Positions 7,980 to 35,377 of a stretch of 64,000 nt of DNA are shown one piece after another. How positions within the stretch are numbered: position 1 is the first letter of the stretch; each line of letters starts with the position of its first letter. The DNA lies in the IMG/VR virus record IMGVR_UViG_3300010354_000081, positions 1,465 to 65,464 of that record. One strand, given 5' to 3'. The notes below the pieces were generated by a model. The model worked only from the letters and a program-made list of their open reading frames with translations, searched no databases and had not been told where the DNA came from. The DNA comes from a virus. Lineage: Duplodnaviria > Caudoviricetes. Both the position numbers and the translations under genes were made by a program.

Positions 7980-8353
7980 TATATATCCCCGGTGGGGTTG
8001 CAGGGGACCCAAAAAGACAAGGGGGGTGTTTTGCTATTTTGCTACTTAATTTAGCTACGCAAATTTTGAGGGGGGTGGGGGTCGCCTCGCCTATCCTTGA
8101 CGCCTTGTTGTTAACTTAACAAGTTACGACCCCCTGACTTAGTGTAACCGTTTTGGGATTTTGTGATTGGTTGTGCAAATTACTAAGGCAAGGCATGCGA
8201 TGGTACCAAGCTGACAGATTGGGGGGTGGGGTGTCGTATTAACACCTGTTAACAAATTGATGGGCGTACCCCTCAGAAAATGCTTTGAATTTTAGAATAG
8301 TTTGGTATCCTACAAGTGCAGTACACATTATCAATAACCGAATGGAGTTAACC

Positions 8354-11388: not shown

Positions 11389-11417
11389 TTGACATGGGGT
11401 AACTATTATGTTATAAT
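11389..11417 (+). promoter_or_regulatory. Consensus sigma70 promoter
   Basis: TTGACA-17bp-TATAAT with extended -10 TG. Confidence 0.9.
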
Positions 11418-11469
11418 ATGTCTTACAGTGGTAGTAGTAAGAAGTAAATCAACCTAAAAGGAGAAACAA

Positions 11470-12558
11470 ATGAGTGCAATCAACTTTGGTCAGTCCGTAT
11501 CGCTCGTCGAGTTTGCGAAGGCTATCGGGCAGGTGGGTCGTGATGTGACGGTGATCGGTCAAGGCGAGCCGGGGATTGGCAAGTCCTCCATGCTGAAAGT
11601 TCTTGCTGCGCAGTATCCCGAGTATGCGATCTCGTACATCGACTGCACGTTGCTGGACTTGGGTGACTTTGCCCTGCCATATACCGAGACAGTGGAGAAC
11701 GAGTTAACACCTGTTAACAAAATCACGAAGTTCGCACCGAACGCACGGTTCAAGATGCACGAAGGCAAGCCGGTGATCGTGATGCTTGACGAGATTGGCA
11801 AGGCAATGAAGGCAGTCAAGAATGTGTTGCTGACTTTGATGCTGGAGCATCGCATCGGTGACCACTATCTGCCTGAAGGGTCGATTGTGTTTGGCACGAC
11901 AAACTTAATGTCAGATGGTGTCGGTGACATGCTCGAAGCACATGCAAGGAATCGTGTGTGCTTGGTGACTGTGCGCAAACCTGATGCAGACGAGTGGATC
12001 GAGTGGGCAATCAGCAACAACGTCGATCCGACGATCATCGCGTGGGTCAAGCAGTTCCCGCATGCACTGGCAAGTTATACCGATCTGTCGCAGAAAGAGA
12101 ACCCGTACATCTTTAACCCAACGCGGGCTGGTTCCGGTGCGGTGGTTACACCAAGAAGTTTGGAGAAGGCGTCCTTCATCGCCAAGCAACGTAATGAACT
12201 GGGGGATGCGCTGACTATCTCTCTGCTGACTGGGACTATCGGTGAGAGTGCGGCGCGGGACATGCAAGCGTTCTTCACTGTGGTGGACAAGTTGCCATCG
12301 TGGGATGCGATCTTGAATGATCCGAAAAATGCCAAGCTGCCCGAGGATACGGTTGCCAAATGTATCTTGGTGTTCTCTGCGGTGACACGAGTAAGCAAGG
12401 ACTCGCTGGACAAATGGATGCACTACTTGAAGCGTATGGACAAGGAGTGGCAAGCCCTGTTTGCAACCAGCGTGATGAAGTCATCCGACAAGCAGTCGTT
12501 CTGTGTGATGAACAAGGAGTTCAAAGACTGGGCGTTGGAAAACCAGTGGTTGTTCTGA
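11470..12558 (+). CDS. MoxR-related AAA+ ATPase
   Basis: Walker A GEPGIGKS, Walker B IVMLDE, TTN sensor, TPRS motif. Confidence 0.88.
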   Translation: MSAINFGQSVSLVEFAKAIGQVGRDVTVIGQGEPGIGKSSMLKVLAAQYPEYAISYIDCTLLDLGDFALPYTETVENELTPVNKITKFAPNARFKMHEGKPVIVMLDEIGKAMKAVKNVLLTLMLEHRIGDHYLPEGSIVFGTTNLMSDGVGDMLEAHARNRVCLVTVRKPDADEWIEWAISNNVDPTIIAWVKQFPHALASYTDLSQKENPYIFNPTRAGSGAVVTPRSLEKASFIAKQRNELGDALTISLLTGTIGESAARDMQAFFTVVDKLPSWDAILNDPKNAKLPEDTVAKCILVFSAVTRVSKDSLDKWMHYLKRMDKEWQALFATSVMKSSDKQSFCVMNKEFKDWALENQWLF

Positions 12559-13785: not shown

Positions 13786-13813
13786 CACCTGTTAATAAAT
13801 TAAGGAGAGTGCC

Positions 13814-14680
13814 ATGATTCAGAATAGCGCAATGTTGGTTGACCTGAACATCTCAGTGTGGACAGGTCGCAAGCAAGACAAGCGTGTGTCGGAAGAGATC
13901 GATGCCGCCAAGAGTACCAAGACGAAGGCTGGGAACTATCATAAGAAGCTGCTGGCAGGTACGCAAAAGCTCGACGATTTGCAGAAACTTGTTACTGGGA
14001 TTCGTGCATGGCACTACGCGCAGACGCTGCCGTGGTCGGATGGTGGCTCACGCCTACTACCCATGAAGAACTTCTTTGACTACAAGGCAACACTCAATGA
14101 CCTTGAGACGCAGTTCAATGAGGCGGTGGAAGCGTTCTTAACTGACTATCCAACACTTGTATCCGCAGCGGCGTTTCAGTTGGGTGACTTGTTTGACTCC
14201 GAGGAGTATCCGAGCGTGGATAGGTTGCGCGATAAGTTCCGGTTCCGGTTCGTGTTCCTGCCTGTGCCTGACGTGGGTGACTTCCGTGTTGATATTAACG
14301 AGCAGCACAAGGAAGAACTCAAAGCGCAATACGAATCGTTTTATGAGAACAAGTTGTCAGAAGCAATGCAAGACGCGTGGTCCCGGCTTCACGAATGTTT
14401 ATCCAAGATGAGCGAGAAGCTGGCGAACGCACCATCCCCGAGAATGACGAAAGACGGTGAGGTGTACACGCAGATATTCCGCGATTCGCTGGTGACTAAT
14501 GCGGTGGAGTTGTGCGAGTTGCTGACCAAGCTGAACGTGACGAACGATACCAAGTTGGAGAACGCACGTAAGACGTTGGAGTCGTTGATCGTAGGCGTGT
14601 CGCCCAAAGACTTGCGTGAGGATGAACACATGCGGTTGGATGTGAAGTCGAAGGTCGATGAAATCCTGAGCATGTTCTGA
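13814..14680 (+). CDS. Helical protein, DUF3150-like
   Basis: WTGRK.D, TLPW...G.RLLP, YP...L..KF motifs; typical third member next to AAA/vWA pairs. Confidence 0.55.
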   Translation: MIQNSAMLVDLNISVWTGRKQDKRVSEEIDAAKSTKTKAGNYHKKLLAGTQKLDDLQKLVTGIRAWHYAQTLPWSDGGSRLLPMKNFFDYKATLNDLETQFNEAVEAFLTDYPTLVSAAAFQLGDLFDSEEYPSVDRLRDKFRFRFVFLPVPDVGDFRVDINEQHKEELKAQYESFYENKLSEAMQDAWSRLHECLSKMSEKLANAPSPRMTKDGEVYTQIFRDSLVTNAVELCELLTKLNVTNDTKLENARKTLESLIVGVSPKDLREDEHMRLDVKSKVDEILSMF

Positions 14681-14714
14681 CAATAAGTTAACACCTGTTA
14701 ATAAGGAGAGTGCG

Positions 14715-15512
14715 ATGTTGAATTTAGTTAACCCCGAAGATGCCGAAGGCCAAGAGATACTGAGTATTGTGAAGGAGTATCGCAAGTCGCAGGTCAGTCG
14801 GTTCCCTGTCGATGTTAAGTTTGGGCAGCAGTTCGCTCGGTTCTACGACACTCGGCACCCAGAGAAATCAATCGCTTCAGTCTTTCGTGGGAAGGATGAG
14901 AAGGGTAAGGAGTTCTGGGGGATTGAGTCTCGACTGATTGAAGCGACGCGGTTCACTGGCGCACGTAGGCATCAGAAGCGCACCACAGATGTAAAGAAGT
15001 TGCTGCGTTACATGCAGGACTATATTCGCACGGTGGCTATCTCAGAGATGGCAGCTCGGTGGCACAGAGATTTTGAAACGTCGATTCGAGATTGGATGTA
15101 CTCAGCAGACAAACTTGTTCGTGATCACTGCACGGTAACGAGAGACGAGTTGATGCGAGAGATACTCCGACTGCAAGCAACTGGCTACACACCACAGACA
15201 GAGAGGTTCGCACAGATCGTTCAGTCGGGCGTGCCAGCATGGGAAGAGAAGATGCGGCGTGAGTCACGCAAGGTGATGCAGGTGTATGTGCATGTGAATA
15301 CTGATGATACGGTCGAGGTGTTCTGTCCTGACAAGTTGGGCTACGCAGGTATCCAAGAAGGCAACAACTTCTTCCAATCGCTCGACGATGCCCCAGTCGC
15401 CATACGACAACAAATTGCCATGTTACGCATGATGGAGGCGAAGGTGTTCGTTCCCGAGGTTGGTGTGCGGGTCACCGATACAGGCTATTGGATTGAGGTG
15501 ATGAGCGAGTAA
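14715..15512 (+). CDS. Hypothetical protein
   Basis: 265-aa ORF with AGGAGAGTGC RBS. Confidence 0.8.
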   Translation: MLNLVNPEDAEGQEILSIVKEYRKSQVSRFPVDVKFGQQFARFYDTRHPEKSIASVFRGKDEKGKEFWGIESRLIEATRFTGARRHQKRTTDVKKLLRYMQDYIRTVAISEMAARWHRDFETSIRDWMYSADKLVRDHCTVTRDELMREILRLQATGYTPQTERFAQIVQSGVPAWEEKMRRESRKVMQVYVHVNTDDTVEVFCPDKLGYAGIQEGNNFFQSLDDAPVAIRQQIAMLRMMEAKVFVPEVGVRVTDTGYWIEVMSE

Positions 15513-15530: not shown

Positions 15531-15559
15531 TTGACAATGTTCGAGTCTATTTATAAATT
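15531..15559 (+). promoter_or_regulatory. sigma70-like promoter
   Basis: TTGACA-17bp-TAAATT in an intergenic gap. Confidence 0.6.
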
Positions 15560-15580: not shown

Positions 15581-15853
15581 ATGGATCGAAGATTTGTTAT
15601 CTGGGTAACAATAGACGAGCGCGGTGATTCGATCAGTATCGTTGCGCGAGATAACGAGTCGCTTGAAAACGTCACCATCAAGGAGTTTCACGTTGCGCCT
15701 AAGTTCGTGGTCGAGCGGTTCGCTATGCTTAAGTTAACAGATGTTAATAAATCTGATAAGGGAGAAATTATAGGTAGAAGGCTGCAAGACAACATAATCA
15801 TCATCTACATTACGTACGATGAATTCCAACAAATAAAGGAAGAGTGCAAATGA
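15581..15853 (+). CDS. Hypothetical protein
   Basis: 90-aa ORF, GAGG RBS. Confidence 0.7.
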   Translation: MDRRFVIWVTIDERGDSISIVARDNESLENVTIKEFHVAPKFVVERFAMLKLTDVNKSDKGEIIGRRLQDNIIIIYITYDEFQQIKEECK

Positions 15854-22482: not shown

Positions 22483-22558
22483 GTAGTTTACAAAGTAAGG
22501 TTTTCAGTAGGCCGCGAGTGGAAATACCACTTTCGGCCTATCAGTGTCTGGAGAAAGA

Positions 22559-24106
22559 GTGCAAATCATCGAAGACAGAGCGCTGCTGTTGCGGGTAAAA
22601 GAACCTAACCGCATCACGACAGTCATACCAAAAGCAAAAATCCTCAACACAGGTGAGGTGCTTGTGAAGTGGGGTTTGGAAGAGGCAATGGTTCTTAAGA
22701 ACCTGCGCATCAAAAACGTACCATCCCCGATTAAAAACAAGTATTCGTGGCCCGGGCTGTATAAGCCGTTCGACCATCAAAAAGAAACGGCATCGTTCCT
22801 AACCCTGCACAAACGGGCGTTTTGTTTTAACGAGCAGGGCACTGGCAAGACATCGAGTGTGATATGGGCTACGGACTACCTGCTAAACGAGGGAGTCATC
22901 AAGCGGGTGCTAGTGCTGTGCCCACTATCCATCATGCAGTCGGCGTGGGAGACAGACTTATTTAGGTTTGCCATGCACCGCACCTGCGCTATCGCGCACA
23001 GCTATTCCAAAGAGAAACGTGTTGCCGCTATCAACAGCGAAGCTGAGTTCGTGATCATCAACTACGATGGGTTGGAGATCGTCAAGGAGGAAGTTGCTGC
23101 GGCTAACTTTGATTTAATTGTGGTGGATGAGGCTAACGCCTACAAAAATGTTCAGACGAAACGCTGGAAAACGCTGGCGTCAATCATCAAGCCATCGACA
23201 TGGGTATGGATGCTGACCGGAACCCCTGCGTCACAGTCCCCAACAGATGCCTACGGACTTGCCAAGATCATCAACCCAAGTGGAGTGCCTAAGTTTCAGG
23301 GTGCCTTCCGCGACATGGTAATGCAGCGCATTACACAATTTAAGTGGATACCCAAGCCACGCTCAGAGAAGATAGTGCATGAGGTTCTGCAACCCGCCAT
23401 CCGGTTTACCAAAGCAGAGTGCCTCGACCTACCGGAGATGACCTACGTAACTCGGGACGTGCCGCTATCTGCGCAACAGAAAAAGTTTTACGAGATCATC
23501 CGCAGGGACATGATGACGGTTGCCGCAGGAGAAGAGATCACTACGGTGAACGCGGCAGCAAACCTAAACAAGTTGCTACAGTTATCTTGTGGTGCTGTTT
23601 ACGCGGACACTGGAGAAGTCGTGGCGTTCGATGCCAAGACTAGGATGGCTGCGCTGTTGGAGGTCATTGAAGAAGCTAGTCACAAAGTCATCGTCTTTGC
23701 GCCGTTCAAACATGCTATCGAAATCGTTGCCGAAGAGTTAAAGAAAAACGGTATTAGCACAGAGGTAATTCATGGTGGCATCAGTGCAACGAGACGCACT
23801 GAGATATTTGCTAATTTCCAAACGGAGACAAATCCACAAGTGTTGGTCATCCAGCCACAAGCTGCTGCACATGGCGTAACGCTACACGCTGCGAACGTCG
23901 TAGTGTGGTGGGGTCCGATTACATCTATCGAAACTTATTTACAGGCGAACGCTAGAGTGCATCGGGCCGGGCAACGCAATCCATGCACAGTGGTACATCT
24001 TCAGGGGAGTCCGGTTGAACATCGAATTTATAAGATGCTATCGGAGAAGGTGGACATACATGCGAAGCTGATTGATCTCTATAAAAATGTGATGCAAGAC
24101 ACTTGA
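22559..24106 (+). CDS. SNF2-family (SF2) helicase
   Basis: QGTGKT, VVDEA, TGTP, HGVTL, QANARVHRAGQ; GTG start after GGAG. Confidence 0.92.
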   Translation: MQIIEDRALLLRVKEPNRITTVIPKAKILNTGEVLVKWGLEEAMVLKNLRIKNVPSPIKNKYSWPGLYKPFDHQKETASFLTLHKRAFCFNEQGTGKTSSVIWATDYLLNEGVIKRVLVLCPLSIMQSAWETDLFRFAMHRTCAIAHSYSKEKRVAAINSEAEFVIINYDGLEIVKEEVAAANFDLIVVDEANAYKNVQTKRWKTLASIIKPSTWVWMLTGTPASQSPTDAYGLAKIINPSGVPKFQGAFRDMVMQRITQFKWIPKPRSEKIVHEVLQPAIRFTKAECLDLPEMTYVTRDVPLSAQQKKFYEIIRRDMMTVAAGEEITTVNAAANLNKLLQLSCGAVYADTGEVVAFDAKTRMAALLEVIEEASHKVIVFAPFKHAIEIVAEELKKNGISTEVIHGGISATRRTEIFANFQTETNPQVLVIQPQAAAHGVTLHAANVVVWWGPITSIETYLQANARVHRAGQRNPCTVVHLQGSPVEHRIYKMLSEKVDIHAKLIDLYKNVMQDT

Positions 24107-24131
24107 CAAAGTAAAGTAGCATCACCATAAT
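24103..24131 (+). promoter_or_regulatory. sigma70-like promoter
   Basis: TTGACA-17bp-CATAAT upstream of the SSB/primase genes. Confidence 0.75.
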
Positions 24132-24163
24132 CGATCTGCCTTTTACAAACGAAGGAGAGTGCA

Positions 24164-24547
24164 ATGACTGACCCCATCAATGCCGATAGGCTTACAAAAG
24201 TCTACGTCAAGATACGAGAAAAGCGTAGAGAACTCGCCAAGCAAGATAAAGAACTCGAAGAGCAATTAGAAGCTGTCGCTACACAGTTGCTTGAGATTTG
24301 CAAAGAGCAAGGCGCTGCAACTATACGCACCCAACACGGTACTATTTCACGAAGAACTAATAAACGATTCTGGCCTACGGATTGGGATGCGTTTTATAAG
24401 TTCATCAAAGATCAAGACGCTATGTCACTGCTTTATCAACGCATCAATACAGCTAACATGGAACAGTTTCTTGAAGAAAACCCCGATCTACATCCGCCGG
24501 GGTTGAACGCGGATGTATCACAATCAATTGTCATTATCAAACGCTAG
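24164..24547 (+). CDS. Conserved replication-module protein
   Basis: YVKIR coiled coil, T.HGT, DW..FY.F, PPGLN motifs. Confidence 0.75.
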   Translation: MTDPINADRLTKVYVKIREKRRELAKQDKELEEQLEAVATQLLEICKEQGAATIRTQHGTISRRTNKRFWPTDWDAFYKFIKDQDAMSLLYQRINTANMEQFLEENPDLHPPGLNADVSQSIVIIKR

Positions 24548-24557
24548 GAGAGTGCAA

Positions 24558-25448
24558 ATGAGCAACGAACTTGCAGTATTTGACCAAGGGCTTCCGTCTT
24601 ACCTGAAGAACGCGGAGCTTGATGCAACCACTAAAGCTTTGATGGGCGGCGGTGGTGGTGAATCAAAACGTATTTCCATCAAGGGCGGCGTATGGCGCAT
24701 GATGGTGAATGGTAAGGAAGTAGCTAAGAACGAAGATCGCTCGATGAATGTTGTGATCGTCGCAGCGGCAGAGAAAGTATCAAGGACGTTTTATGCAAAG
24801 CAATTTTCAGAAGGAGGTGAAGTCACAGCCCCCGACTGCTGGTCAGCGAATGGAGAAATGCCAGACGCAAAAGTCAAAGAACCACAAGCCAAACGATGCC
24901 TCGACTGCCCCCAGAATGTTAGAGGCTCGGGACAGGGTGAAAGCCGTGCTTGCCGTTACAGTCAACGCTTGGCTGTAGTACTAGCCAATGATGTTAGGGG
25001 CGACATATTCCAACTGACTCTACCTGCTGCATCTATCTTTGGTAGCGGTGAAGCTGGTAAGTGGCCTCTGCAAACTTACGCCAAGATGATTGGCAGCAAG
25101 GGCGTACCCATCACCGCAGTTGTCACCGAGATGCGCTTTGATACTGACAGCGCTACACCGAAGCTGACGTTTAAGCCAGTGCGTGTACTGGAACCGCAGG
25201 AGCATGAGGCTGCAATCGCACAGGGTAAAACCCCCGCTGCACAACGTGCAATCACCATGACTGTTGCTGAGACGGATGGTGTCAAGGTTGCGGAAGCTGC
25301 TGCCGTTGAGTTTGAGACGGTGAAGCCAAAAGCTGCGCCTGTCGAAGTTGTAGTAGAAGAAGAACCTGTAAAACGCACGGCTAAGAAAGAAGAAGCACCA
25401 GCCGACAAGAAAGACCTGTCCAAAATCCTCGACGAATGGGATGACTAA
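24558..25448 (+). CDS. Putative single-stranded DNA-binding protein
   Basis: RISIKGG, PDCWS, C..CP.N..GS...RAC, acidic C-terminus ILDEWDD. Confidence 0.65.
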   Translation: MSNELAVFDQGLPSYLKNAELDATTKALMGGGGGESKRISIKGGVWRMMVNGKEVAKNEDRSMNVVIVAAAEKVSRTFYAKQFSEGGEVTAPDCWSANGEMPDAKVKEPQAKRCLDCPQNVRGSGQGESRACRYSQRLAVVLANDVRGDIFQLTLPAASIFGSGEAGKWPLQTYAKMIGSKGVPITAVVTEMRFDTDSATPKLTFKPVRVLEPQEHEAAIAQGKTPAAQRAITMTVAETDGVKVAEAAAVEFETVKPKAAPVEVVVEEEPVKRTAKKEEAPADKKDLSKILDEWDD

Positions 25449-25449
25449 T

Positions 25450-25680
25450 ATGCCTACCGGATACTCACTGCTAACCGTAGAAGAGATTCGAAGAGCTGAC
25501 CAAAGACTGCTTGGAGTGCAACTCGCACAGATTTGTCTTAGAGACGACATTCCTGTTACCGATGTTGCCGAGTTCTTTAGTGTCAGCCGCATGACCGTTT
25601 ACAACTGGTTCAAAGGTAAAGCGGTTGTGTCAGGCAAACATGCGGAGCGCATGAAGAAGCTAATAACAAAATTAGCTTAA
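25450..25680 (+). CDS. Cro-like HTH protein
   Basis: VTDVAEFFSVSRMTVYNWFKG; directly upstream of the primase. Confidence 0.8.
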   Translation: MPTGYSLLTVEEIRRADQRLLGVQLAQICLRDDIPVTDVAEFFSVSRMTVYNWFKGKAVVSGKHAERMKKLITKLA

Positions 25681-25691
25681 TTGGTTGTAGG

Positions 25692-25770
25692 GGGGCTAGG
25701 TTAGCTACCGAAAAGGGCGTTGCCGTCACGCCCCTGCCCATCCTCTTTTGACGGTTCGTTGAGGACGGCT
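25692..25770 (+). promoter_or_regulatory. Structured 5' leader of the primase-helicase (putative cis-regulatory RNA)
   Basis: GGGCGT/ACGCCC stem; CCGTCA (25723-28) complementary to TGACGG (25749-54); TCCTC (25741-45) complementary to SD GAGGA (25761-65). Confidence 0.5.
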
Positions 25771-28656
25771 ATGCTTTCACGCAAAGAATTTTTTGCACTG
25801 GTGTTACCACCTCTGGAAGAAGGTGAGCACTACTGCAATTGGGGTAATAGAAGAGATTATGTAGAAGAAGGTGGAGAACTTAAACCCAAAGATGTTGTCC
25901 GGCAACGATTTGCAGATAGCATCGACGTTCTCAGCACCCAAGCCGACGCGTTTCAAGCGGACGGGTTCAATGCTTTCTTTGGGCTGGCGAAGTTTGGTGC
26001 GGTAAAGAACGGTCGGTATGCGGTTAATGCGATTGCGCTCAAGTCATTTTTCTTAGACCTTGATTGTGGTGAGGGGAAGCCCTACGCCACGTTAGATGAT
26101 GGGTTAGTAGCGCTCAAGAACTTTTGCAAAGCCACTGGGCTACCGAAGCCGACGATTCTTAGGTCTGGGCGCGGTGCGCACGTGTACTGGATTCTTGAAG
26201 AGCCTCTCACCAGAGAGGAGTGGAAGCCATTTGCCGAGCAGCTCAAGACCCTTTGCAGCACACACAAGTTTGATATTGACTACGCTGTGCCAGCAGATGC
26301 GGCACGGGTACTGCGCGTTCCTGAAACCAACCACCTAAAAGACCCGACCAATCCGATACCGGTCGAGATTCTGTATCTGGCACCGCTGGTTCCGAACGAG
26401 CGTATAAAAGAACTGTTAGAGCCGTCAGATGCCATACTAGATACCGTTGCCAAAGAGTTTGGTAAGCGCCCCCTTGACGCAACGACCCTAGCTTTGATTG
26501 GCGCGAGTCAGTCACGCTTCAAGACAATCCTAATCAAATCGGTTGAGGGTAACGGCTGCGCACAGATCGTCAACATCTACGACAACCAAGCCACAATCGA
26601 AGAGCCGTTGTGGAGAGCCGGTCTGTCCATTGCCCAACAGTGCATAGACCGCGACAAAGCAATACACGTTATTAGCAAGGGGTATCCGGGGTATTCGTCT
26701 GAGAACACCGAGAAGAAAGCTAATGAGACGAAAGGCCCGTACACCTGCGATACATTCAAAAAGTTAAATCCAGTTGGATGCGAAGGGTGTACGTTAAAGA
26801 TCACCTCGCCGATTCAGCTTGGTAAAGAAATCGTAGAAGCAACAGAAGAGCAAAGCACCGTCATTGGCATCGAGGCACAGACTAAAGAGGCCAAGGAATA
26901 CGTCATCCCGAAACTACCATTCCCATTTTTCCGTGGCAAGAATGGTGGTGTGTTCGTCCATACCAAAGACAAGGACGGTAACGACATAGATGAAGTTGTT
27001 TACCCATACGACTTCTACGTAGTTAAGCGGATGACTGACCCTGATTTGGGGGAGACGTTGCTGCTACGCCTCCACCTGCCAAAAGACGGAGTGCGCGAGT
27101 TCATCATGCCTTTGGCTTCGGCACTGGCTAAAGATAAGTTCAGAGAGATCATCGCATCGCATGGCATCGCTGCGCTCAGTAAGCAGCAAGATACGCTCAT
27201 GTGGTACGTGACGAAATGGGTAGAGGAGTTGCAAATGAAGATGGGCGCGGAGAAAGCACACAAACAGTTTGGCTGGACGGAAGACCAGTCTGCAATCATC
27301 GTAGGCGACAGAGAGATCAAAGCAACGGGAGTAAGTTACAGCCCTCCATCTGCACCGACCCTACCACTGGTGCCGTTGTTCACACCCAAAGGCGACTTCC
27401 ATGTTTGGAAAGATGTAATCAACGCGTACGGCAGACCGGGGATGGAGGGCAGGGCTTTCGCTTTCTTCACGGGGTTTGGCACGTTGCTAATGCCGTTCGT
27501 TGCAAAGGGTGCGCTTGATGGTTTCCTTATTAACCTGATGAGCCGTGAGTCTGGTTCGGGTAAAACGACAGTACTCCATGCACTCAACAGCATTTACGGT
27601 AGGCCAAAAGAGTTGCTGCTATCCCCCAAAGATACGTACAACGCACGGATGCAGCGGTTCGGAACCCTGCAAAACCTTTGCCTGACGATGGACGAGATCA
27701 CCAACATGCAGTCAGAGCACATGTCACAACAAATTTATGACGTGACTTCTGGGCGGGGCAAGAACCGAATGAGTCGGCACGAGAACGCCGAGCGACTAAA
27801 CCACACCAAGTTTTCTAGTGGGTTGGTTACGTCAAGCAATCGGTCAGTGCCCGACATGCTGCTAAACATAAAGGGCTTTCCCGATGGCGAACTAAATCGT
27901 ATCTTGGAGATCAACATGAAGCCAGATACGTACAACGATCCTGCATGGTCAAGGAATCACTTTGGCAGACTAATGGCTAACTACGGGCATGCTATCGAGC
28001 CGTATTCGCAAGCGATACTAGGCCAACTCCCGATGGTGATTAAGAAGATAGAGGAGTTCGAAGCCAAGATAGATGCGGCTGCTGGCATTACGAATACAGA
28101 ACGGTACTGGTCAGCTATGGTCACAATCAATATAGCAGGTGGTGCTATTGCCAAGATGCTTGGCTTGCACGACATACCAATCAAGCCGGTGTTTGACTTT
28201 GGCGTTAACTTGGTCAAGGAGACACGTGTTCGCACCAAAGAGCTGATGCTGGATGCCGATGACTTTCTTGGTGGGTTTTTGCAGCGTCACTTTCACGAGA
28301 TTCTGGTCATCAATGGCAATCGCGACAAGCGCACTGGTGCAGAATATGGACCGATTCGTGAACCTCGCGGGGCACTGATCATACGATATGAACCGGACAC
28401 TAAACTATTGTTTGTTGTTACAAAGGCTTATAGGGACGACTGCTCCAAGCTGTTCATGAACTTTGAAGAATCTTTGATCCCTTATCGCAAGAACAAAGCG
28501 TTCGTGGAGATCAAGAAGAAGCGCATGACAGCAGGAACCGTCGCGAATATGCAAGCCCCAGTTAGCGCCATCTGCTTCGATACATCCAAACTGGAATACT
28601 TTAGCGAAACTGTGTTGCTAAAAAATGAAGATACTGGGACTGCCACTGCTGATTGA
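25771..28656 (+). CDS. AEP primase-polymerase fused to DUF927-type helicase
   Basis: FLDLDCG, SGRGAHVYW, ARVLRVP; Cys cluster GPYTC..C..C; Walker A ESGSGKTT, Walker B MDEIT. Confidence 0.9.
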   Translation: MLSRKEFFALVLPPLEEGEHYCNWGNRRDYVEEGGELKPKDVVRQRFADSIDVLSTQADAFQADGFNAFFGLAKFGAVKNGRYAVNAIALKSFFLDLDCGEGKPYATLDDGLVALKNFCKATGLPKPTILRSGRGAHVYWILEEPLTREEWKPFAEQLKTLCSTHKFDIDYAVPADAARVLRVPETNHLKDPTNPIPVEILYLAPLVPNERIKELLEPSDAILDTVAKEFGKRPLDATTLALIGASQSRFKTILIKSVEGNGCAQIVNIYDNQATIEEPLWRAGLSIAQQCIDRDKAIHVISKGYPGYSSENTEKKANETKGPYTCDTFKKLNPVGCEGCTLKITSPIQLGKEIVEATEEQSTVIGIEAQTKEAKEYVIPKLPFPFFRGKNGGVFVHTKDKDGNDIDEVVYPYDFYVVKRMTDPDLGETLLLRLHLPKDGVREFIMPLASALAKDKFREIIASHGIAALSKQQDTLMWYVTKWVEELQMKMGAEKAHKQFGWTEDQSAIIVGDREIKATGVSYSPPSAPTLPLVPLFTPKGDFHVWKDVINAYGRPGMEGRAFAFFTGFGTLLMPFVAKGALDGFLINLMSRESGSGKTTVLHALNSIYGRPKELLLSPKDTYNARMQRFGTLQNLCLTMDEITNMQSEHMSQQIYDVTSGRGKNRMSRHENAERLNHTKFSSGLVTSSNRSVPDMLLNIKGFPDGELNRILEINMKPDTYNDPAWSRNHFGRLMANYGHAIEPYSQAILGQLPMVIKKIEEFEAKIDAAAGITNTERYWSAMVTINIAGGAIAKMLGLHDIPIKPVFDFGVNLVKETRVRTKELMLDADDFLGGFLQRHFHEILVINGNRDKRTGAEYGPIREPRGALIIRYEPDTKLLFVVTKAYRDDCSKLFMNFEESLIPYRKNKAFVEIKKKRMTAGTVANMQAPVSAICFDTSKLEYFSETVLLKNEDTGTATAD

Positions 28657-28873
28657 GTGGGATAAATTTCAGCCGGGCACCTCATTCTTCGTGCCTTGTT
28701 TGGATCGCAAACTTACTCAGCGATTTGTTGAGGCAGAAGCACGACGCCTGAAATTAAAAGTTGTCTGTAAACAAGTAGTGGAGAAGGGGAAGTATGGCTT
28801 ACGGGTTTGGAGAGTTGAGGATATAATGCCCTCGCACTCTTCTTCTCCGCCACTCTCTCTGGAGAAGAATTAA
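28625..28873 (+). CDS. Small conserved protein after the primase
   Basis: W..F.PG.SFFVPC...GLRVWR; low-complexity tail overlaps the predicted sRNA. Confidence 0.7.
   Translation: MKILGLPLLIEWDKFQPGTSFFVPCLDRKLTQRFVEAEARRLKLKVVCKQVVEKGKYGLRVWRVEDIMPSHSSSPPLSLEKN
28799..28827 (+). promoter_or_regulatory. Putative promoter for the sRNA
   Basis: TTACGG-17bp-TATAAT; predicted +1 at G28834. Confidence 0.55.
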
Positions 28874-28899
28874 CCCCCGGCAAGTCCGGGGGTCTTTTT
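28834..28899 (+). ncRNA. Putative trans-acting antisense sRNA targeting AGGAGAGTGC ribosome-binding sites
   Basis: Promoter, 5' seed GCACTCTTCTT, 9-bp hairpin with CACTCTCT loop, terminator. Confidence 0.6.
28873..28899 (+). terminator. Rho-independent terminator at the convergence of the two arms
   Basis: ACCCCCGG-CAAGT-CCGGGGGT followed by CTTTTT. Confidence 0.85.
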
Positions 28900-31800
28900 A
28901 GTCCTCATCCTCATCCAACAAAGCCTCAATCTCTGGCATCAGGTTCTTATTGAACCGCACCCCATTGATCATATTCTTCTCGGCAGCTTCCCTAGCTCTT
29001 TCCGAACGTATCAAAGTATCGCGGGTAATCTTGGCTTTGGGGTCAATACGACGCTCATTGAACGCACTAATTTCTTCCCGTGCTTCGTCCATCAGATCGG
29101 AGTCTCCGGCACGGCGTGCCATGTCGTACTTGTTCAGCAGCTTTTTGCGCTTCTCCATGATCTCCCGCTCGAAGCCCTTCTTCATTGCAAGTTCTTCGTA
29201 GACGTTTGATAAGTGGGCAGGGGAGAAGCCGATGACTTGCATTAGGGAGTTGTATGTGGATATATCTTCTACAACAGGGTCTCCCTTAAGTGTCAACGCG
29301 CCTTCGTTTAAATATCGAAAACCTTTCATTGCGTTTCGTATGACGCTTGGCGTCATGGCCTCAATCCCACGCCAGACCTCACCTTCCGATACAAGCTTCG
29401 CGCCATTACCAACACCCACTGCAAACGACCCAGCAGGACCGAACGCTTGCTTCATGGCAGTCATCACGTAGCCATCTTCAGCAACGCCTCGTGGATCATC
29501 ACGGAAGATTAGGTCATTTGCCACGCCTACACGGTTAGCAATCTCCAAGTTGGTTGCGTAGTTAACAAGCCCTTTATAGAACAGCTCGTTCGTCCAGTTA
29601 CGCATCATCACGTCAAAGTCGTACGGCTCGTCATCGTCTCCTAGCAACGCGTTGATCATAGTCGCTAATGTAGACGTGGCCCCCATGAATGGAAGTCCTT
29701 TGATGCCAGCGAACGCCATCGCCATGCCGTAGATACCAATAAGCTGCCTAAAGGCTTCTTTGCGAACCGCTTGGCTTTCTCCTTTAGTTGCCTGATGGAA
29801 GGCACGGGCTACTACAAACGCGGTGTTCCACACAAAAGACTTGAACGTAAAGAAGATACGCCCTAACGGATGCTGCATGTAGCGCGGGGCAGTCGATGAC
29901 AGGCCGGAGGTGTTGATCTCTTTTACGGTATTTAAGGCGTAGCGGATCGCATCCTGCTCATTCATCCCGCTACCACGTGCCAGATCATATGCGGCGATAG
30001 CCGTAGCACCACGGTTTAAGACTTCAGTCTTACTAAACGGTATGGACACTACGTCCATGATCCGGGCTTTGATGCCAGTAAATTCAGAAGTTGTTTGGCG
30101 ACGCCCTTCCAACACTTCTCGTGCCATTGTGTGTTCTAGCTGCGCGTGGTCATTTAATACATCAAACAGCTTGGCATACTTGGCGGGTACTTTGTTGTTA
30201 AAAATGTAGTCGATTGTGGTTTTGGAAGCTGACGACAGTGCAAGGAAAGACTGATCAAACCCAAACTTGGCACCCAGAATCGACCACGAAAACATCGGTA
30301 ACGTAGTCAAGTTAATTAACGCTGACGATACGTTGCCTGCTATGTAACTGAGATAACTAATCGTTGTTGCCGCGCTGGTAAGTCCGTCATAGGTTGGGTT
30401 ATGGAAGAAGCCTGCCTGACTTACCACGTTTTGAGCAGCGGCGTATGCTCCAGCACCTTCTGGTTTTGTTGAAGCCTCGTTACCTTGGGTTGCAACCTCG
30501 CTCAAAGCACGGTCAATCTCAGGATTGTATTTACTGGACGCTAACTTACGTGCCCACTTGATCATCGTTTCGCCATACCCGCGCACGATGTCGCGCTCCA
30601 TGCCCCGAATATTGTCGGACTTCATGAAGTTCTTTGCCAAAGATTCAGCGGGGAACAACGCAAGATATGACTGATATATGTTGTCCTTGAGTGTCTGGCT
30701 GGCACCCTGCTTGTTCAACTCGCCCATCAACCCGACAATAAACGATGAGGAAGGCAGCGTACTCTGGTTAAAAGTGGCTTCGTTTAGGTTCCGATAAACT
30801 TTATGTGGTTTACCTTTGAGTTGCGTTTCGATAAACCTCTGCCGCTCACGTTGCGACTCAAACGCTTGTACTGCACGCTCGCCGTTTTCATCGTATTCAA
30901 CCCAGAAGTCGCCTCGGCGCAGGAACGGAATATAGCCAACCTGACGCTTACGCGCCTCATACTGGGCTTTTAATTTACGGCGAGCCGATGGGTCTTGAAC
31001 AGAGTTGATCAGGATGTCTTCGTACTCGTTAATAGCAGAGTCGTAAGCGCCACGAATGTCTTTATAAACTTGTTGTACTTCGGCAGGTAGCGCGTTGTAC
31101 ACATTCTTTAAACGGCGGTATTCGCTTTGTTGCGCAGGCGCTGGTTTAAATTTGGGATCGAGCAGGTCAACTTGTTCAAGTCGCGCATCAATCGCCATGT
31201 CATTCATACGCTGCATGGCCTGTGGGTTGCGTCTTTCTACACCCAAGAAGCGCTTGTAATTAGTGTTGATTACCTTGATGCGTTGTTCTTCCGTACCGTT
31301 GCGCAACTCCAAAGCATCTATAAGCTTTTGCAGGGACGGTAGTTCTTTGCGGTAGATAGTGTTGATGTTGTCTAAGCGCAGCAGACCCATTGCGATGGAC
31401 TGCGCGTCTCCCGGCACGTTCGACAAGTAGTTTTTGGTGCCCTCTACAGTCCTACCAGCGAGCGTAGGCATCGCCTGCCCGATACGACCAACTACACCAA
31501 ACCCTGTGTTTGCGCCGTTAGGAGTTCCCAAGAACAGCAGGTCTCCAACTGACGGGTCTACATCAGCCGAGATGTCCAGAGCATCACTAATTAACTTCAA
31601 ACCTTTATCGTATGCGTTGGTGCCTTTAGCAAATCCAAAGAACTCTGCCAGTGTCTGCATGAACCGCACAAACATGTTCTTGCTCTTGGGAGCCTTGATG
31701 GTCTTGAGCAGGGCTTGGAACTCAGGGTTACTTACCAGTTCAGCAGCAAACTCCTGCAAGTCTTGGGCACCGTACGCCGTACCCATCTGGTTTTGAATCT

Positions 31801-34800
31801 GCTCGAATAGGGCAGTTAACTGTTTGGTGACCGGCAGGTTAGGGTTGCGTAGCACATGGGATATGGCAGCGTGCATGAGTTCATGCAGCAGCGTGTGCTC
31901 GTTCATCCCCAACTCGGGGCTGATGGTTATGGTATTGGTACGTGGGTCAAAGGAACCAGCTTTTGGTGAATAAAGGATACGGCCTTCTTTCTGACCATAC
32001 GCCCCGCTATTAAATACAGACTTAATTTGAGCTGGATTAAAGGCTACTATTTCACTAATCTCATTGTCTCGATATTTAATAATTCCATCGTAGCCTTGAG
32101 CAGTGGCCCTACTCTTTACTTCGTTAGTTATATATCCTTTTTCGTCGTAAGCCTTTTCAACAATCCGCTCCGCCTTAGTACGGTCAACGCCAAGCCGTAC
32201 CAGTGCCTCTACCATCGGGTCTTTGGCAATTGATCCGTCAAGGACCAGCGGGTTTTTGATGGATGCGTACAGGGGCATGACGTTGCCATCGGCTTGATAC
32301 GGCTCAGCATATCCACTGGCGAACTCTGGGTTTGGTGTCACATAGATACCATTACCTAACGCCCCGCCTTCTTTACTGACTTTAAATTTATCGATGTCAG
32401 CATGCGTGCCGTGGTATACAACTAACGGATCGCCGTTCTCGTCAACAACCTTGCTATCACCAAACCAACGATAAAACGCATCGGGAAGCGCCATCGGGCC
32501 TTCTGGGTTGCCCACCACAATCTTAGTCTTGAGATTCAGACTCTTGATCTTGGACAAGATCATCCGCAGCGGCTTGCTGGTACTGGAGTTGCGTAGATGG
32601 TCGAGCAGGCCGTTGACGTTGCCGTCTTGTACAAGTTGTTTACCAGCGTCATTTAGTTCAGGCCCGCGATGCGCCGGTAAGAATAGTTTAGTACCTGTCT
32701 TCTCAAACAAGCGCTCGTTGAACTCATCAGCAAGTGCATCAAGTTCTGCTTCAGAAACAGGCGCACGACGAGGAGGTGCTTTTTTCTCAGCCTCGGTTTT
32801 TAGGTTGCGTACACGTTCCCTAGCGGTTTCTTCAAATTCTGAAACGGCTTCCCTATTGATGTTTGACAGTATCTGTTCTTTTTGGGCAGGCGTAGCTGTT
32901 TCAAACGCTTCAAGAAACGGAGCCATATCTGGCCCAGACTCCATGATGGCGTCGTTAATAACACCAAGTTCTTGCTGGTTGCGTGTGGCCTGCGCCCTTT
33001 CCGCAGGGGTAGCTGCCGGTGCATTTATTAAATCTTTTAGCCGAGCGTATTCATTTAGCAGGTTTGCCAGACGTAAGTAGTCATGCGCCGGTGTGCCACG
33101 GAAGTCCTCCGACGGCATTGTTTTAGGATTAATCCCTTCGGCAGAGGCAATCTGCCGCAACATGCCAGTTAGGATGTTGTTAGCACGCTCATCGTTTTGG
33201 GCTACGAAGTCGATCTGTTGCTGAACAGCCTTATCAACACCAGCTTCAGCTTTGGCTACATCTTGCGCTTCTCTAACACCTAGTGGACGCCCAGCAACCT
33301 CTTCTCCGACATCAACGTCTCCAGCAGCAAGTCCAGCCTCATCCAATCCTCCGCTGATAGGTTCTGTAACTTCTCCGGCACCTCGATCTCTGACTGCCTC
33401 TCTTCCATCAGTGATATCACTCGGAACGCCAAGCTCAGTTCTTCCGATGTCAAATTGTGCAGTTGGCTCACTTGGCACCTCCGTTGGGGCAACCTGAAAC
33501 TCAGGACGTTTCAAGAATTCTTCGATCTTGGCAGGAGCGCCCTCGGCTGGTTTGCCTGATGCGTAAGCCTCCAATACACGTTTAACTTCAGCAGCCTGTT
33601 CTGGATCAGATAAATCTTTACCAGCAAGCGGTCCATCTTCGCGCAGTATCTTTGCCGTACGACCAATCCCAAGTTGTTTGCCAAGCGCAGCAAGTCCGGT
33701 CTTGTCCGCGCTGATGATAGTTCCTTCTATACCAGAAGGAGTTGTTACTTTGGTGGGTTCGGCAACTGCTTCTTCAACTGCTGGTGCAGCCTCAACCGCC
33801 GGTGCGGGGGGCATGCCCGAGAACAAATCGCCCTGCCCAGTAGTTTTAATCTGTTCTTGAAGGTCGGCTTGTTGTTGCTGTGTAGCCGCGATTTCTTCAG
33901 GCGACAGCCCGGGCAGCGTAAGTTGCTTAGCACCCAAGAACTTCTTCAGATTATCCTGATACTGCTTTAGTTCAGTCGCTTCTTTCTTAGCTTGTTGGCG
34001 AGCAATGTTTACCGCACGCTTCTCATCAGCGGTTGCGGCTTTTTCGGCTTCTTTGGTTAGTTCACCTTCTGGCCCAAACATCTCCAGTTGCTTGCCACCC
34101 AACTTCTTTTTAGCACCTTCTTCAGCTTTCTTGGTAACTTCTTCTGGCTGGTATTGGGCTGTGTACACACCGGTTTCTAACCCCGGCAACTCCATCTGAG
34201 TTTTTTGCGCCTCAAGTTCAGCTATTTGCTGTTCTGCTTCAGTAACTTCACGGCGCAGACGAGCCGCATCTTCGACACGCCGTTCACGTTCAGCTTGTTC
34301 GGCTTGAACACGTAAGTCTTCCGCTCTTTCGCGTAGGCGTTGTACTGACCCACCTGCAACACCGAACCCACCACCAGCGATAGCACCACGCACGCTGGCT
34401 TCCATGATCCGATCCCACTCTTTGCTCTCAAATACTTGTGGGTTCTTAGCAACAAAGTTCTCTGCGGCGATACTGATAGCTTCTTGTGCGCCTTCGGTAA
34501 GACCTTCACCCGCAGTGCCTTTGATGAGGCCAGAAGTAACACTGCGTAGTAAACTACGATCCATGCCGGATTTCTCCAGCACTTTCTCTACGATGCCCAT
34601 CTTAAGTGGGCCAGTCATCTGCCGCGATAATTGCGCAGGGAGAACGGAATCTAAAGCAGCGGCACCAGCACCAAAGAGTAGCGACGTGCCGACATCCATC
34701 TCGCCGGTTTTCTCAAACACGTTTTGGAAAATCTCTGGAGCGTTCTGGGCGTACGACCCCAAAAACACACCCGCATCCGAACCAAGCTGCGCCTTAGCAG

Positions 34801-35377
34801 CAATCTGTGGGGCAGCACGTTTCATGCCCTCGGCGATAAAGGCAGTAGCAGCTTCGCCAACCAGACCACGTTCAGCAGCTTGGGTTGCAAGGGACTTACC
34901 TACTGTAGATAAAGCAGCACGCCCTGCAAAAATACCGCCCCCGACACCGGGGATAAGGGCTGTAGCGATGTTGGGGATTTGTTCGCCAATTACTTGAGCG
35001 CCAAATTGAAGTCCTTGATATATGGATTCAGGCTCTTTGTATGACTCGTAGATTGGGGGACGTGCCCTGAAAATCTCTTGCTGAGACTTAGCAGCTTCTT
35101 CCATTTGCTGCTTGGCGTAGTCTTCAAAACCAAAAGTCTTACCGAGCATGGCAGGGATAATGTCCCCACCAACTACGCCAAGTTGTTGCGCCCCACGAAC
35201 GGCAGACTCCCCTAACGTACCAAGGAGGCCGGGACCATATTCTTTACGTAAACGCCTGTTTTCGTCTTGCTCGTATAACTGACTGGCGGTTTGGAACAAC
35301 GCGTTCTTATCTGCGTTCTCTGGACCCTCAATCTGATACAACTTGCCGTTAGGAGCACGTACCTTATAGATAGGCAT
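28898..35377 (-). CDS. Large ejected/internal virion polyvalent protein with ADP-ribosyltransferase-like and zincin metallopeptidase domains
   Basis: 2159 aa; WFGDSKVVD..PLVVYHGT..GIYVT..GYDGII..EIVAF.P.QIKS (ART, ~31995-32480); HELMH at 31871-31885; last gene of the ejection cluster. Confidence 0.82.
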   Translation of the reverse strand: MPIYKVRAPNGKLYQIEGPENADKNALFQTASQLYEQDENRRLRKEYGPGLLGTLGESAVRGAQQLGVVGGDIIPAMLGKTFGFEDYAKQQMEEAAKSQQEIFRARPPIYESYKEPESIYQGLQFGAQVIGEQIPNIATALIPGVGGGIFAGRAALSTVGKSLATQAAERGLVGEAATAFIAEGMKRAAPQIAAKAQLGSDAGVFLGSYAQNAPEIFQNVFEKTGEMDVGTSLLFGAGAAALDSVLPAQLSRQMTGPLKMGIVEKVLEKSGMDRSLLRSVTSGLIKGTAGEGLTEGAQEAISIAAENFVAKNPQVFESKEWDRIMEASVRGAIAGGGFGVAGGSVQRLRERAEDLRVQAEQAERERRVEDAARLRREVTEAEQQIAELEAQKTQMELPGLETGVYTAQYQPEEVTKKAEEGAKKKLGGKQLEMFGPEGELTKEAEKAATADEKRAVNIARQQAKKEATELKQYQDNLKKFLGAKQLTLPGLSPEEIAATQQQQADLQEQIKTTGQGDLFSGMPPAPAVEAAPAVEEAVAEPTKVTTPSGIEGTIISADKTGLAALGKQLGIGRTAKILREDGPLAGKDLSDPEQAAEVKRVLEAYASGKPAEGAPAKIEEFLKRPEFQVAPTEVPSEPTAQFDIGRTELGVPSDITDGREAVRDRGAGEVTEPISGGLDEAGLAAGDVDVGEEVAGRPLGVREAQDVAKAEAGVDKAVQQQIDFVAQNDERANNILTGMLRQIASAEGINPKTMPSEDFRGTPAHDYLRLANLLNEYARLKDLINAPAATPAERAQATRNQQELGVINDAIMESGPDMAPFLEAFETATPAQKEQILSNINREAVSEFEETARERVRNLKTEAEKKAPPRRAPVSEAELDALADEFNERLFEKTGTKLFLPAHRGPELNDAGKQLVQDGNVNGLLDHLRNSSTSKPLRMILSKIKSLNLKTKIVVGNPEGPMALPDAFYRWFGDSKVVDENGDPLVVYHGTHADIDKFKVSKEGGALGNGIYVTPNPEFASGYAEPYQADGNVMPLYASIKNPLVLDGSIAKDPMVEALVRLGVDRTKAERIVEKAYDEKGYITNEVKSRATAQGYDGIIKYRDNEISEIVAFNPAQIKSVFNSGAYGQKEGRILYSPKAGSFDPRTNTITISPELGMNEHTLLHELMHAAISHVLRNPNLPVTKQLTALFEQIQNQMGTAYGAQDLQEFAAELVSNPEFQALLKTIKAPKSKNMFVRFMQTLAEFFGFAKGTNAYDKGLKLISDALDISADVDPSVGDLLFLGTPNGANTGFGVVGRIGQAMPTLAGRTVEGTKNYLSNVPGDAQSIAMGLLRLDNINTIYRKELPSLQKLIDALELRNGTEEQRIKVINTNYKRFLGVERRNPQAMQRMNDMAIDARLEQVDLLDPKFKPAPAQQSEYRRLKNVYNALPAEVQQVYKDIRGAYDSAINEYEDILINSVQDPSARRKLKAQYEARKRQVGYIPFLRRGDFWVEYDENGERAVQAFESQRERQRFIETQLKGKPHKVYRNLNEATFNQSTLPSSSFIVGLMGELNKQGASQTLKDNIYQSYLALFPAESLAKNFMKSDNIRGMERDIVRGYGETMIKWARKLASSKYNPEIDRALSEVATQGNEASTKPEGAGAYAAAQNVVSQAGFFHNPTYDGLTSAATTISYLSYIAGNVSSALINLTTLPMFSWSILGAKFGFDQSFLALSSASKTTIDYIFNNKVPAKYAKLFDVLNDHAQLEHTMAREVLEGRRQTTSEFTGIKARIMDVVSIPFSKTEVLNRGATAIAAYDLARGSGMNEQDAIRYALNTVKEINTSGLSSTAPRYMQHPLGRIFFTFKSFVWNTAFVVARAFHQATKGESQAVRKEAFRQLIGIYGMAMAFAGIKGLPFMGATSTLATMINALLGDDDEPYDFDVMMRNWTNELFYKGLVNYATNLEIANRVGVANDLIFRDDPRGVAEDGYVMTAMKQAFGPAGSFAVGVGNGAKLVSEGEVWRGIEAMTPSVIRNAMKGFRYLNEGALTLKGDPVVEDISTYNSLMQVIGFSPAHLSNVYEELAMKKGFEREIMEKRKKLLNKYDMARRAGDSDLMDEAREEISAFNERRIDPKAKITRDTLIRSERAREAAEKNMINGVRFNKNLMPEIEALLDEDED

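Follow-up and report, generated by a model that had tools for sequence, protein, structure and literature searches.

A predicted small RNA with a conserved 5' seed complementary to a tag at the ribosome-binding sites of early genes in an apparently virulent phage family

We analyzed a stretch of 64,000 nucleotides (nt) from a virus of the Caudoviricetes (IMG/VR record IMGVR_UViG_3300010354_000081, positions 1,465 to 65,464; hereafter, the window), which covers nearly all of a 65,464-base record with a CheckV completeness of 100%, and found on its + strand, at positions 28834 to 28899, a predicted small RNA of ~66 nt whose 5' end is complementary to a tag shared by the starts of several early genes. 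The most likely function of this RNA is the coordinated translational repression of the six or seven tagged genes of the early arm, and we place it, as a new family, in a familiar class of regulators, that of trans-acting small RNAs directed against ribosome-binding sites (RBSs), as a putative member. An earlier reading of the DNA from its letters (the original prediction) had already proposed a single small RNA with a 5' end complementary to a common start tag. To that core idea, our analysis adds comparative conservation, joint loss and cognate pairing, while a second copy of the seed in a loop, a single-stranded DNA-binding protein (SSB) as target and a site before the polymerase gene were not supported.

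The element (28799 to 28899) lies inside and just 3' of a small open reading frame (ORF) of 82 amino acids (aa) at 28625 to 28873, absent from the original prediction. Its predicted sigma-70-type promoter consists of a -10 hexamer TATAAT at 28822 to 28827 (+ strand) and, 17 nt 5' of it, a weak -35-like hexamer TTACGG at 28799 to 28804 (+), within the Leu-Arg codons of the peptide GLRVW. The predicted transcript extends from +1 at G28834 to the end of the terminator U-tract at 28899. GCACTCTTCTTCTCC begins at 28834, with GCACTCT located 6 nt after the -10, and the seed (28834 to 28848, +) is composed of this core (28834 to 28840) and of an extension, TCTTCTCC, which is similar to an anti-Shine-Dalgarno (anti-SD) sequence and at the same time forms the 5' arm of hairpin 1. 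This hairpin (28840 to 28869, +) has a stem of 10 bp (28840-28849 with 28860-28869), one more than the original count of 9, a loop of 10 nt and a 3' arm, GGAGAAGAA, that resembles a Shine-Dalgarno (SD) sequence. It is followed by an intrinsic terminator (28873 to 28899, stem-loop 28873-28893, T-tract 28895-28899) that is predicted on both strands and is common to the RNA and to a convergent ORF of 2159 aa (28898 to 35377, - strand) ending at 28898, inside the T-tract. In the predicted fold of the 66-nt RNA, nt 1 to 6 are free and are followed by the 10-bp hairpin and the terminator; its folding energy is -28.0 kcal/mol (z of -4.27), equaled by none of 200 shuffled sequences. The coordinates first given for the tag sites, the TATAAT and the start at 28834 were all correct. 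The near-copy CACTCTCT in the loop of hairpin 1, once read as a second copy, is present in the window, but the loop is not conserved among relatives.

The counterpart of the seed was found at gene starts. AGGAGAGTGC occurs exactly at 13803, 14704, 24153 and 24546, always on the + strand, AGAGTGC at 15841 and 22556 (giving AGGAAGAGTGC at 15837 and GGAGAAAGAGTGC at 22550), and the shorter GAGTGC at 11472 and 19358. Throughout the window AGAGTGC was counted 10 times on the + strand and once on the - strand, the sole - copy being the seed itself. In the early arm, 7 of the 15 + strand copies of GAGTGC fall within -16 to +4 of a start, against 0.52 expected (binomial p of 3e-7; 34 starts), and GAGTGC, tied with AGGAGA, is the commonest 6-mer in these 34 start regions. 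The strongest duplexes predicted on the + strand were those at starts 24164, 22559, 15850, 11470, 14715, 24558 and 13814. To separate this pairing from the generic one between CU-rich RNA and SD sequences, the 5' GCAC of the seed was swapped for all 256 possible tetramers. GCAC ranked 1-2 of 256, tied only with its wobble twin GCGC, and with it 7 of 73 start regions reached -16.5 kcal/mol or lower, compared to 0 for the median tetramer. An RBS tag shared by several early genes, as initially described, is borne out by the counts.

Six genes carry the tag clearly, all on the + strand. They code for a DUF3150 protein (start region 13803 to 13816, AGGAGAGTGCcATG; -16.8 kcal/mol), a 265-aa protein without an assigned family (14704 to 14717, AGGAGAGTGCgATG; -17.7 kcal/mol), a winged-helix (TrmB-like) regulator (15837 to 15852, AGGAAGAGTGCaaATG; -18.1 kcal/mol), an SNF2-type helicase whose GTG start codon is inside the tag (22550 to 22561; -20.7 kcal/mol), a Gam/gp157-like protein (DUF7307) with the best predicted duplex (24153 to 24166, AGGAGAGTGCaATG; -21.5 kcal/mol) and a 296-aa protein (24546 to 24560, AGGAGAGTGCaaATG; -16.8 kcal/mol) for which no sequence relative was found in the PDB. 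The AAA ATPase (11457 to 11477, +, AAGGAGAAACAAATGAGTGC) does have the GAGTGC noticed originally, just 3' of its ATG, and remains as a weaker target (-16.3 kcal/mol). No tagged gene matched an SSB family in Pfam or PHROG. The polymerase site at 19358 was not supported either: 19 nt separate it from the start that it precedes, and a single one of the five compared genomes retains it. Another purpose that we considered for the tag, the provision of dual in-frame start codons (GTG…ATG), was ruled out, as the two are offset by 5 nt in four genes.

Relatives were gathered from IMG/VR. The primase led to 28 loci and the small ORF to at least 175, 80 of them retained; the 91 related loci with complete downstream sequence amount to 63 distinct versions. 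TAnAnT is found at the expected place in 60 of the 63, L064 has a shifted CATAAT instead, and two distinct versions (L116; L117/L118) have no promoter, RNA or terminator. In L116, L117 and L118 (G010), the small ORF abuts the stop of the convergent gene (…GAGGATTAATCCTC…) with none of these parts in between, and we regard the three as natural deletion variants that can serve as controls. T1, A2, A4 and T6 of the -10 are fixed in 60 of 60 while positions 3 and 5 vary, which is, on the sequences compared, the conservation pattern of a sigma-70 -10. The extended -10 dinucleotide TG is missing from all 11 versions with a perfect TATAAT and present in 25 of the 49 imperfect ones (Fisher p of 0.0016, ignoring relatedness), a distribution expected of compensation in a functional promoter. 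The -35 appears as TTACGA in 15 of the 60 versions, TTGCGT in 13, TTGCGG in 11, TTACGG in 8 and other forms in the rest. The distance from the -10 to the seed is 6 nt in 46 versions, 7 in 4, 9 in 7 and 12 in 1, and the seed itself was recovered in 58 of the 60; the exceptions are L009, which is rearranged, and L101, with a different 5' end (GUUUCUCC…). When 12 seed sequences were aligned, G1, C2, A3, T5, C6 and T7 proved invariant.

The predicted structure is also shared. Among 55 distinct RNAs of 40 to 70 nt (median of 58), 54 have the same predicted plan of free 5' end, hairpin 1 and terminator, and at least five of the seven seed nucleotides are predicted to be unpaired in 38 of 53. The stems of hairpin 1 differ by lineage (CUUCUC/GAGAAG, CCUC/GAGG, UCUCC/GGAGA, ACUUC/GAAGU and CUACU/AGUAG), and in every one of these types the pyrimidine-rich arm is the 5' arm, a bias that fits a putative selection on this arm as the anti-SD extension of the seed. 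The stem pairs of the terminator are preserved through compensatory CG/GC changes. From the comparison of relatives, we conclude that the element exists and that selection acts on it as a unit of predicted promoter, seed, hairpin and terminator.

Alternatively, the early operon might just end here, with a terminator and an accessory hairpin or with a stabilizer in the 3' untranslated region, and TAnAnT and GCACTCT would be conserved as parts of the coding tail of the small ORF. The reading frame of this tail does take in the -10 and the seed in the window and in many relatives, the -35 coincides with conserved Leu-Arg codons, and the promoter scan makes no call there. On the other hand, the stop of the small ORF occurs at 15 different offsets (from -5 to +55) among the relatives, and in the L011 group the ORF ends before the -10 (a single class of offset, -5) with the whole element retained, so that protein coding does not explain the conservation of the -10 and the seed. 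The seed stays intact where the spacer between it and the -10 has gained 1, 3 or 6 nt, one of these insertions being frame-changing. Its letters at third codon positions (xxG CAC TCT) do not change, in contrast to synonymous sites in the rest of the ORF, which are free to vary. A T-A-n-A-n-T with compensation by TG is, besides, the pattern of a promoter and not that of codons. We consider the operon-end explanation very unlikely.

The tag was also followed at the gene starts of relatives. In five fully or largely sequenced relatives (G001 to G005), the orthologs of 13814, 14715, 15850, 22559 and 24164 retain it while the flanking intergenic letters diverge. At the DUF3150 start it is kept in G003 and G001, and G002 has GGAGAGAGC; the contigs of G004 and G005 end at this place, and no ortholog start was recovered from them. 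The 265-aa gene keeps the tag in G003, G005 and G002, with GTGT in G004 and GTGA in G001, the winged-helix regulator keeps it in G003, G004 and G005, and the SNF2 helicase in the same three genomes, with a varied form in G001. Such last-letter variants (GUGU, GUGA) touch only the pair with the first nucleotide of the RNA. The 296-aa gene (24558) is tagged only in the window, G003 and G004 and not in G005, G002 or G001, and the ATPase orthologs have the full GGAGAGTGC before their ATG only in G001 and G002. The tag is gained or lost gene by gene among relatives. Overall, GAGTGC was enriched at starts in 14 of 14 seed-bearing early arms (2 to 7 observed against 0.16 to 0.55 expected).

Seed and tag also seem to disappear together. 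Among distinct loci compared at the start of the Gam-like gene, 45 have both seed and tag, 6 the seed alone, 4 neither and none the tag alone. An upstream …ccttttacaaacgaaggag is widely conserved at this start, and AGTGC comes after it in 45 of the 51 seed-bearing and in none of the 4 seedless distinct loci. On a tree of the neighboring 296-aa protein, the seed was lost three times (in L009, in L101 and in the clade of L116 to L118), and all three losses were accompanied by that of the tag at the Gam-like gene. AGTG[CT] was found at 0 of 17 and 0 of 12 starts in two seedless arms, compared to 3 to 7 of 17 to 50 in seed-bearing ones. The sole substitution within the seed, C4>U in L018/G001, faces an unchanged G in GGAGAGUGC, so that a G:U pair is kept. 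When the 15-nt seed of each of 18 seed groups was compared with the 17 foreign seeds on its own starts, the mean rank fractions were 0.32 and 0.28 (Wilcoxon p of 0.007 and 0.012, again ignoring relatedness). The L098 group has a UAGU-type seed, each of whose 16 nt pairs with the Gam-like start of the same group, and in L017 the seeds with G8 face a C in TCAGAGTGC. From these loci, seed and tag appear to be jointly present or absent, with a complementarity above chance. For the covariation that the original prediction proposed to look for, the observations are co-loss in three of three cases, with only three independent pairs to draw on, and a preference for cognate seeds (p of ~0.01 without correction for relatedness).

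One of the seedless relatives deserves a separate mention. L101 (G009) retains the -10 (TACAAT) and the terminator, and its RNA would begin with GUUUCUCCGUGG and not with GCACUCU; none of its 17 start regions carries the GAGTGC tag. Its 5' end, GUUUCUCC, exactly complements GGAGAAAC, an RBS form that is found in the window at genes 11470 and 18066.

The tag GGAGAGUGC might instead be an extended or enhanced RBS, in which GGAG and GUG pair with the 16S rRNA 3' end (CAC-CUCC) around one bulged A, the complementary RNA end being incidental or acting elsewhere, for example, as a mimic of the 16S tail. The tag does resemble what we take to be the full SD complement, GGAGGUGAUC. It is located at a fixed 1 to 4 nt from the start codon, GAGTGC is as common as AGGAGA in start regions, and the tagged genes are downstream from the strongest promoters (11389-11417 and 24103-24131). 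The bulged pairing would be weaker, however, than that of the plain GGAGG used by other genes of the phage, and the final C of the tag does not fit the 16S complement. Furthermore, the tag is gone in exactly those lineages that lost the seed, with the upstream AAGGAG kept, GCAC is at the top of the 256 tetramers as partner, and cognate seeds outpair foreign ones. We find an enhanced RBS improbable as the whole explanation of the tag.

It is even less probable that GAGTGC/GCACTC is a site at the DNA level or for a protein, such as a phage regulator, an RNA-binding repressor or a nuclease, with a logic like that of RegA/RegB; the chances of this seem to us very slim. The early arm has another motif that is clearly of DNA type, the palindrome TTAACAnnTGTTAA, partly fused to ribosome sites, and a copy of it in the hairpin loop of G006 illustrates how apparent complementarity can come from operator copies. 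GAGTGC, in contrast, is not palindromic, and at starts it is always found on the coding strand and at a fixed distance from the start codon, which argues for the RNA level. Its sole inverted copy is exactly at the predicted +1 of the promoter-terminator unit in 46 of 60 versions, and the extensions beyond the core differ by lineage and match the starts of their own lineage.

The palindrome itself (TTAACA-nn-TGTTAA, 14 bp) was found in both orientations, with 11 copies (up to 2 mismatches) against 0.41 expected, between 8239 and 16528 (sites at 8239, 8985, 9526, 10072, 10498, 11704, 12566, 13782, 14688, 15734 and 16515). Three copies double as ribosome sites (TTAACAGGAGTTAATAA before 10090, 10515 and 12583), two are just 5' of the tagged starts 13814 and 14715, and G001 has the co-varied form TTAAACATGTTTAA. 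This motif is most likely a DNA operator and looks like that of a dimeric phage regulator. In G006, the record of L110, the loop of hairpin 1 (GUUAACUCCUGUUGA) can form 15 bp, one of them G:U, with TTAACAGGAGTTAAC at eight of its own early-arm starts, and G008 has a shorter version of this complementarity at three starts. The G006 loop was not counted as evidence of a second seed, since TTAACAGGAGTTAAC is a variant of the palindrome and looks complementary in either orientation; the loop may be a second seed or may be a copy of the operator.

We also weighed the possibility that the RNA is real and either has host mRNAs as its main targets or activates the tagged phage genes. A review (PMC12197685) describes small RNAs of phages and prophages that have host genes as targets. 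The partner of the seed is nevertheless a tag internal to the phage, kept and lost together with it. As to activation, the evidence does not fix the direction of regulation, but pairing over the SD sequence, spacer and start codon is the classic repressive geometry. Either variant seems quite improbable to us, as much so as the operon-end explanation.

Several points weigh against a tag-directed repressor RNA as proposed here. The consensus promoter scan is silent at the promoter of the RNA because the -35 TTACGG matches too few letters, and the conservation of this weak hexamer (TTACGG/TTGCGN) is confounded by the overlapping Leu-Arg codons. The seed too is in frame within an ORF (Pro/Ser-His-Ser) in most lineages, a possible added constraint. 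Pairing within the RNA is predicted for three or more seed nucleotides in 15 of 53 cases. CU-rich RNA pairs with any purine-rich SD sequence, so that part of the duplex energy is generic, and a search with the 10-mer allowing one mismatch gave 8 matches against 3.57 expected, a weaker point, with 3 of 100 shuffles also reaching 8. Six of the 51 distinct seed-bearing loci are without AGTGC at the Gam-like start, three of them GUGU wobble variants. There are only three independent seed-loss pairs, one of them on a well-supported branch, with which a sign test cannot reach significance, and the two seedless arms cover just 10.7 and 8.7 kb. The 7-nt core is nearly invariant and, as a result, offers few true two-sided compensatory changes, and the neglect of relatedness affects both the Fisher and the Wilcoxon tests.

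If the coordinated repression that we favor is correct, the RNA would be transcribed from a host sigma-70-type promoter in which the -10 does most of the work and which is buried in the dispensable tail of the last ORF of the early arm, and extra copies might come from the 3' end of the long early transcript, its end being the two-way terminator. The single-stranded 5' GCACUCU, extended by the anti-SD-like UCUUCUCC, would pair with the tag (G)GAGAGUGC, which spans the 3' half of the SD sequence, the spacer and sometimes the start codon, in the mRNAs of the DUF3150 protein, the 265-aa protein of unknown function, the winged-helix regulator, the SNF2 helicase, the Gam/gp157-like protein and the 296-aa unknown and, weakly, of the AAA ATPase. 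Pairing there would block binding of the 30S subunit and lead to a joint drop in the translation of the tagged genes, a repression that would deepen as the RNA accumulates. We infer from the letters the synthesis of the RNA, repression rather than activation, its timing and the opening of hairpin 1 from the 5' toehold. An early-to-late switch, copy control and immunity are conceivable roles, and a toehold mechanism may operate.

A more elaborate version, to which we assign a small chance, would make seed and tag a lineage-specific system of translation addressing coupled to a gated mimic of the 16S anti-SD, possibly acting between phages as a heteroimmunity without lysogeny. The 5' toehold (GCAC…) would recognize only tagged messages and then open hairpin 1, releasing a generic anti-SD that would clamp the ribosome site, and when a related phage with the same tag superinfects a cell, its early genes would be silenced by the phage that arrived first. 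Action between phages is suggested because the extensions of seed and tag diversify by lineage, some lineages perhaps having a second address in the loop (G006).

The original prediction had not recognized the element as a described family, and no Rfam family fits it. With Rfam 15, C4 antisense RNA included, nothing reached the gathering score at the element in the window or in nine related loci (145,722 bases); only int-alpA RNA was detected, and that elsewhere. Below that score, Burkholderia anti-hemB (RF02837) gave 21.8 bits at 28841 to 28902 (gathering score of 49.5) and Betaproteobacteria toxic small RNA (RF02278) 20.2 bits at 28839 to 28900 (gathering score of 50), alignments that rest on the terminator and on the loop specific to the window and not conserved. 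Like these two families, the predicted RNA has a hairpin with a pyrimidine-rich anti-SD followed by an intrinsic terminator, but its conserved seed is the 5' end and not the loop, and it has a specific GCAC beyond the anti-SD. A rho-independent terminator with a U-tail, a conserved and largely single-stranded seed and complementarity to several starts above chance are the features found here that speak for a small RNA. Bacterial anti-SD small RNAs with CU-rich motifs include the C-rich RNAs of the RsaE type.

The c4 RNA of P1/P7 and the CI RNA of P4 are part of immunity circuits of temperate phages and are processed from the operon that they control. The RNA predicted here would resemble them as a short phage-encoded RNA acting in trans at RBSs, with sequence match setting the specificity between related phages, and differs from them in having its own predicted promoter, six or seven dispersed targets, a 5'-terminal seed and a setting in apparently virulent phages. 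For c4, a review describes short complementary stretches that cover the ribosome-binding region of a phage mRNA (ant) in trans (PMC12197685). The present phage family appears virulent: direct terminal repeats are present in two relatives, and a search of 185,579 bacterial genomes yielded no relative and no prophage form, only two weak partial matches (33% over 40 aa and 59% over 17 aa). In phage T4, RegA is a translational repressor and RegB an endoribonuclease that cleaves SD sequences. The logic of a coordinated posttranscriptional shutdown of early genes through a signal at the RBS would be the same, although RegA and RegB are proteins, whereas here the specificity factor would be a predicted RNA with an explicit complementary tag. 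Trans-acting small RNAs carried by phages, with phage targets identified through interactome work, have been reported to function in lytic growth for ICP1/PLE (bioRxiv 10.1101/2022.04.08.487710) and lambda (bioRxiv 10.1101/2024.10.31.621285); they have no relation in sequence or architecture to this element and are experimentally supported, while ours is a prediction from sequence. In the phage small-RNA literature, as far as its texts were accessible, we found phage small RNAs of other kinds and none with a conserved multigene RBS tag. Neither the DNA nor the small ORF had a match in 50,697 records of isolate phages. The primase and polymerase find only distant isolates (Pseudomonas phage Rollin, 28.5%; Rhizobium RHph_TM phages, 24 to 37%; KPP25, 35.5%), and in Rollin the small genes are others and the primase is not followed by an element of this kind.

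What is unusual is the setting of the predicted regulator in an apparently virulent family, its promoter hidden in the tail of an ORF and the readable tag on the genes of the phage itself. If the RNA is real, an uncultured and apparently virulent family with at least 175 related contigs represses its own replication and recombination genes by RNA and not by protein, and does so through a phage-internal small RNA regulon that can be read from sequence, its targets being legible straight from genomes. Lineages with neither RNA nor tag would be natural knockouts, and the compact pair of seed and tag lends itself to direct reporter testing. The case would also show that small RNA genes can lie concealed in the tails of annotated ORFs, out of reach of gene callers and of intergenic small RNA searches.

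As for the genomic context, the early or replication arm consists of + strand genes from ~8.3 to 28.9 kb, whose products include the AAA ATPase, a DUF2201 protein, the DUF3150 protein, the winged-helix regulator, a family-A DNA polymerase, a PD-(D/E)XK nuclease, the SNF2 helicase, the Gam/gp157-like protein, a helix-turn-helix (HTH) protein and a DUF927 primase. A long - strand arm converges on it at 28.9 kb, and the RNA element is situated exactly at this junction. The small ORF is the last gene of the + arm and comprises a core of residues 1 to 64 (to GLRVWR), with a mean column identity of 79% across relatives, and a variable tail that reads through the promoter -10 and the 5' part of the RNA; it had no match in Pfam or PHROG. 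Near-consensus sigma-70 promoters were found at 11389-11417, 24103-24131 and 15531-15559 on the + strand, located 5' of the ATPase, the Gam-like gene and gene 15581, and at 7979-7951 on the - strand. Their forms are TTGACA-17-TATAAT with TG, TTGACA-17-CATAAT and TTGACA-17-TAAATT, and the TTGACA-17-TATAAT at 11389-11417 is a textbook case. Because such promoters precede its genes, the early arm appears to be read by the host RNA polymerase. Finally, an int-alpA RNA (RF02996) was detected at 25689 to 25754 (+), with 39.2 bits against a gathering score of 35.8, between the HTH gene (25450 to 25680) and the DUF927 primase ORF. It was found as well in L110 (5090 to 5158; 40 bits) and L123 (5089 to 5155; 37.7 bits), and probably serves the primase gene of this phage family as a conserved leader element.

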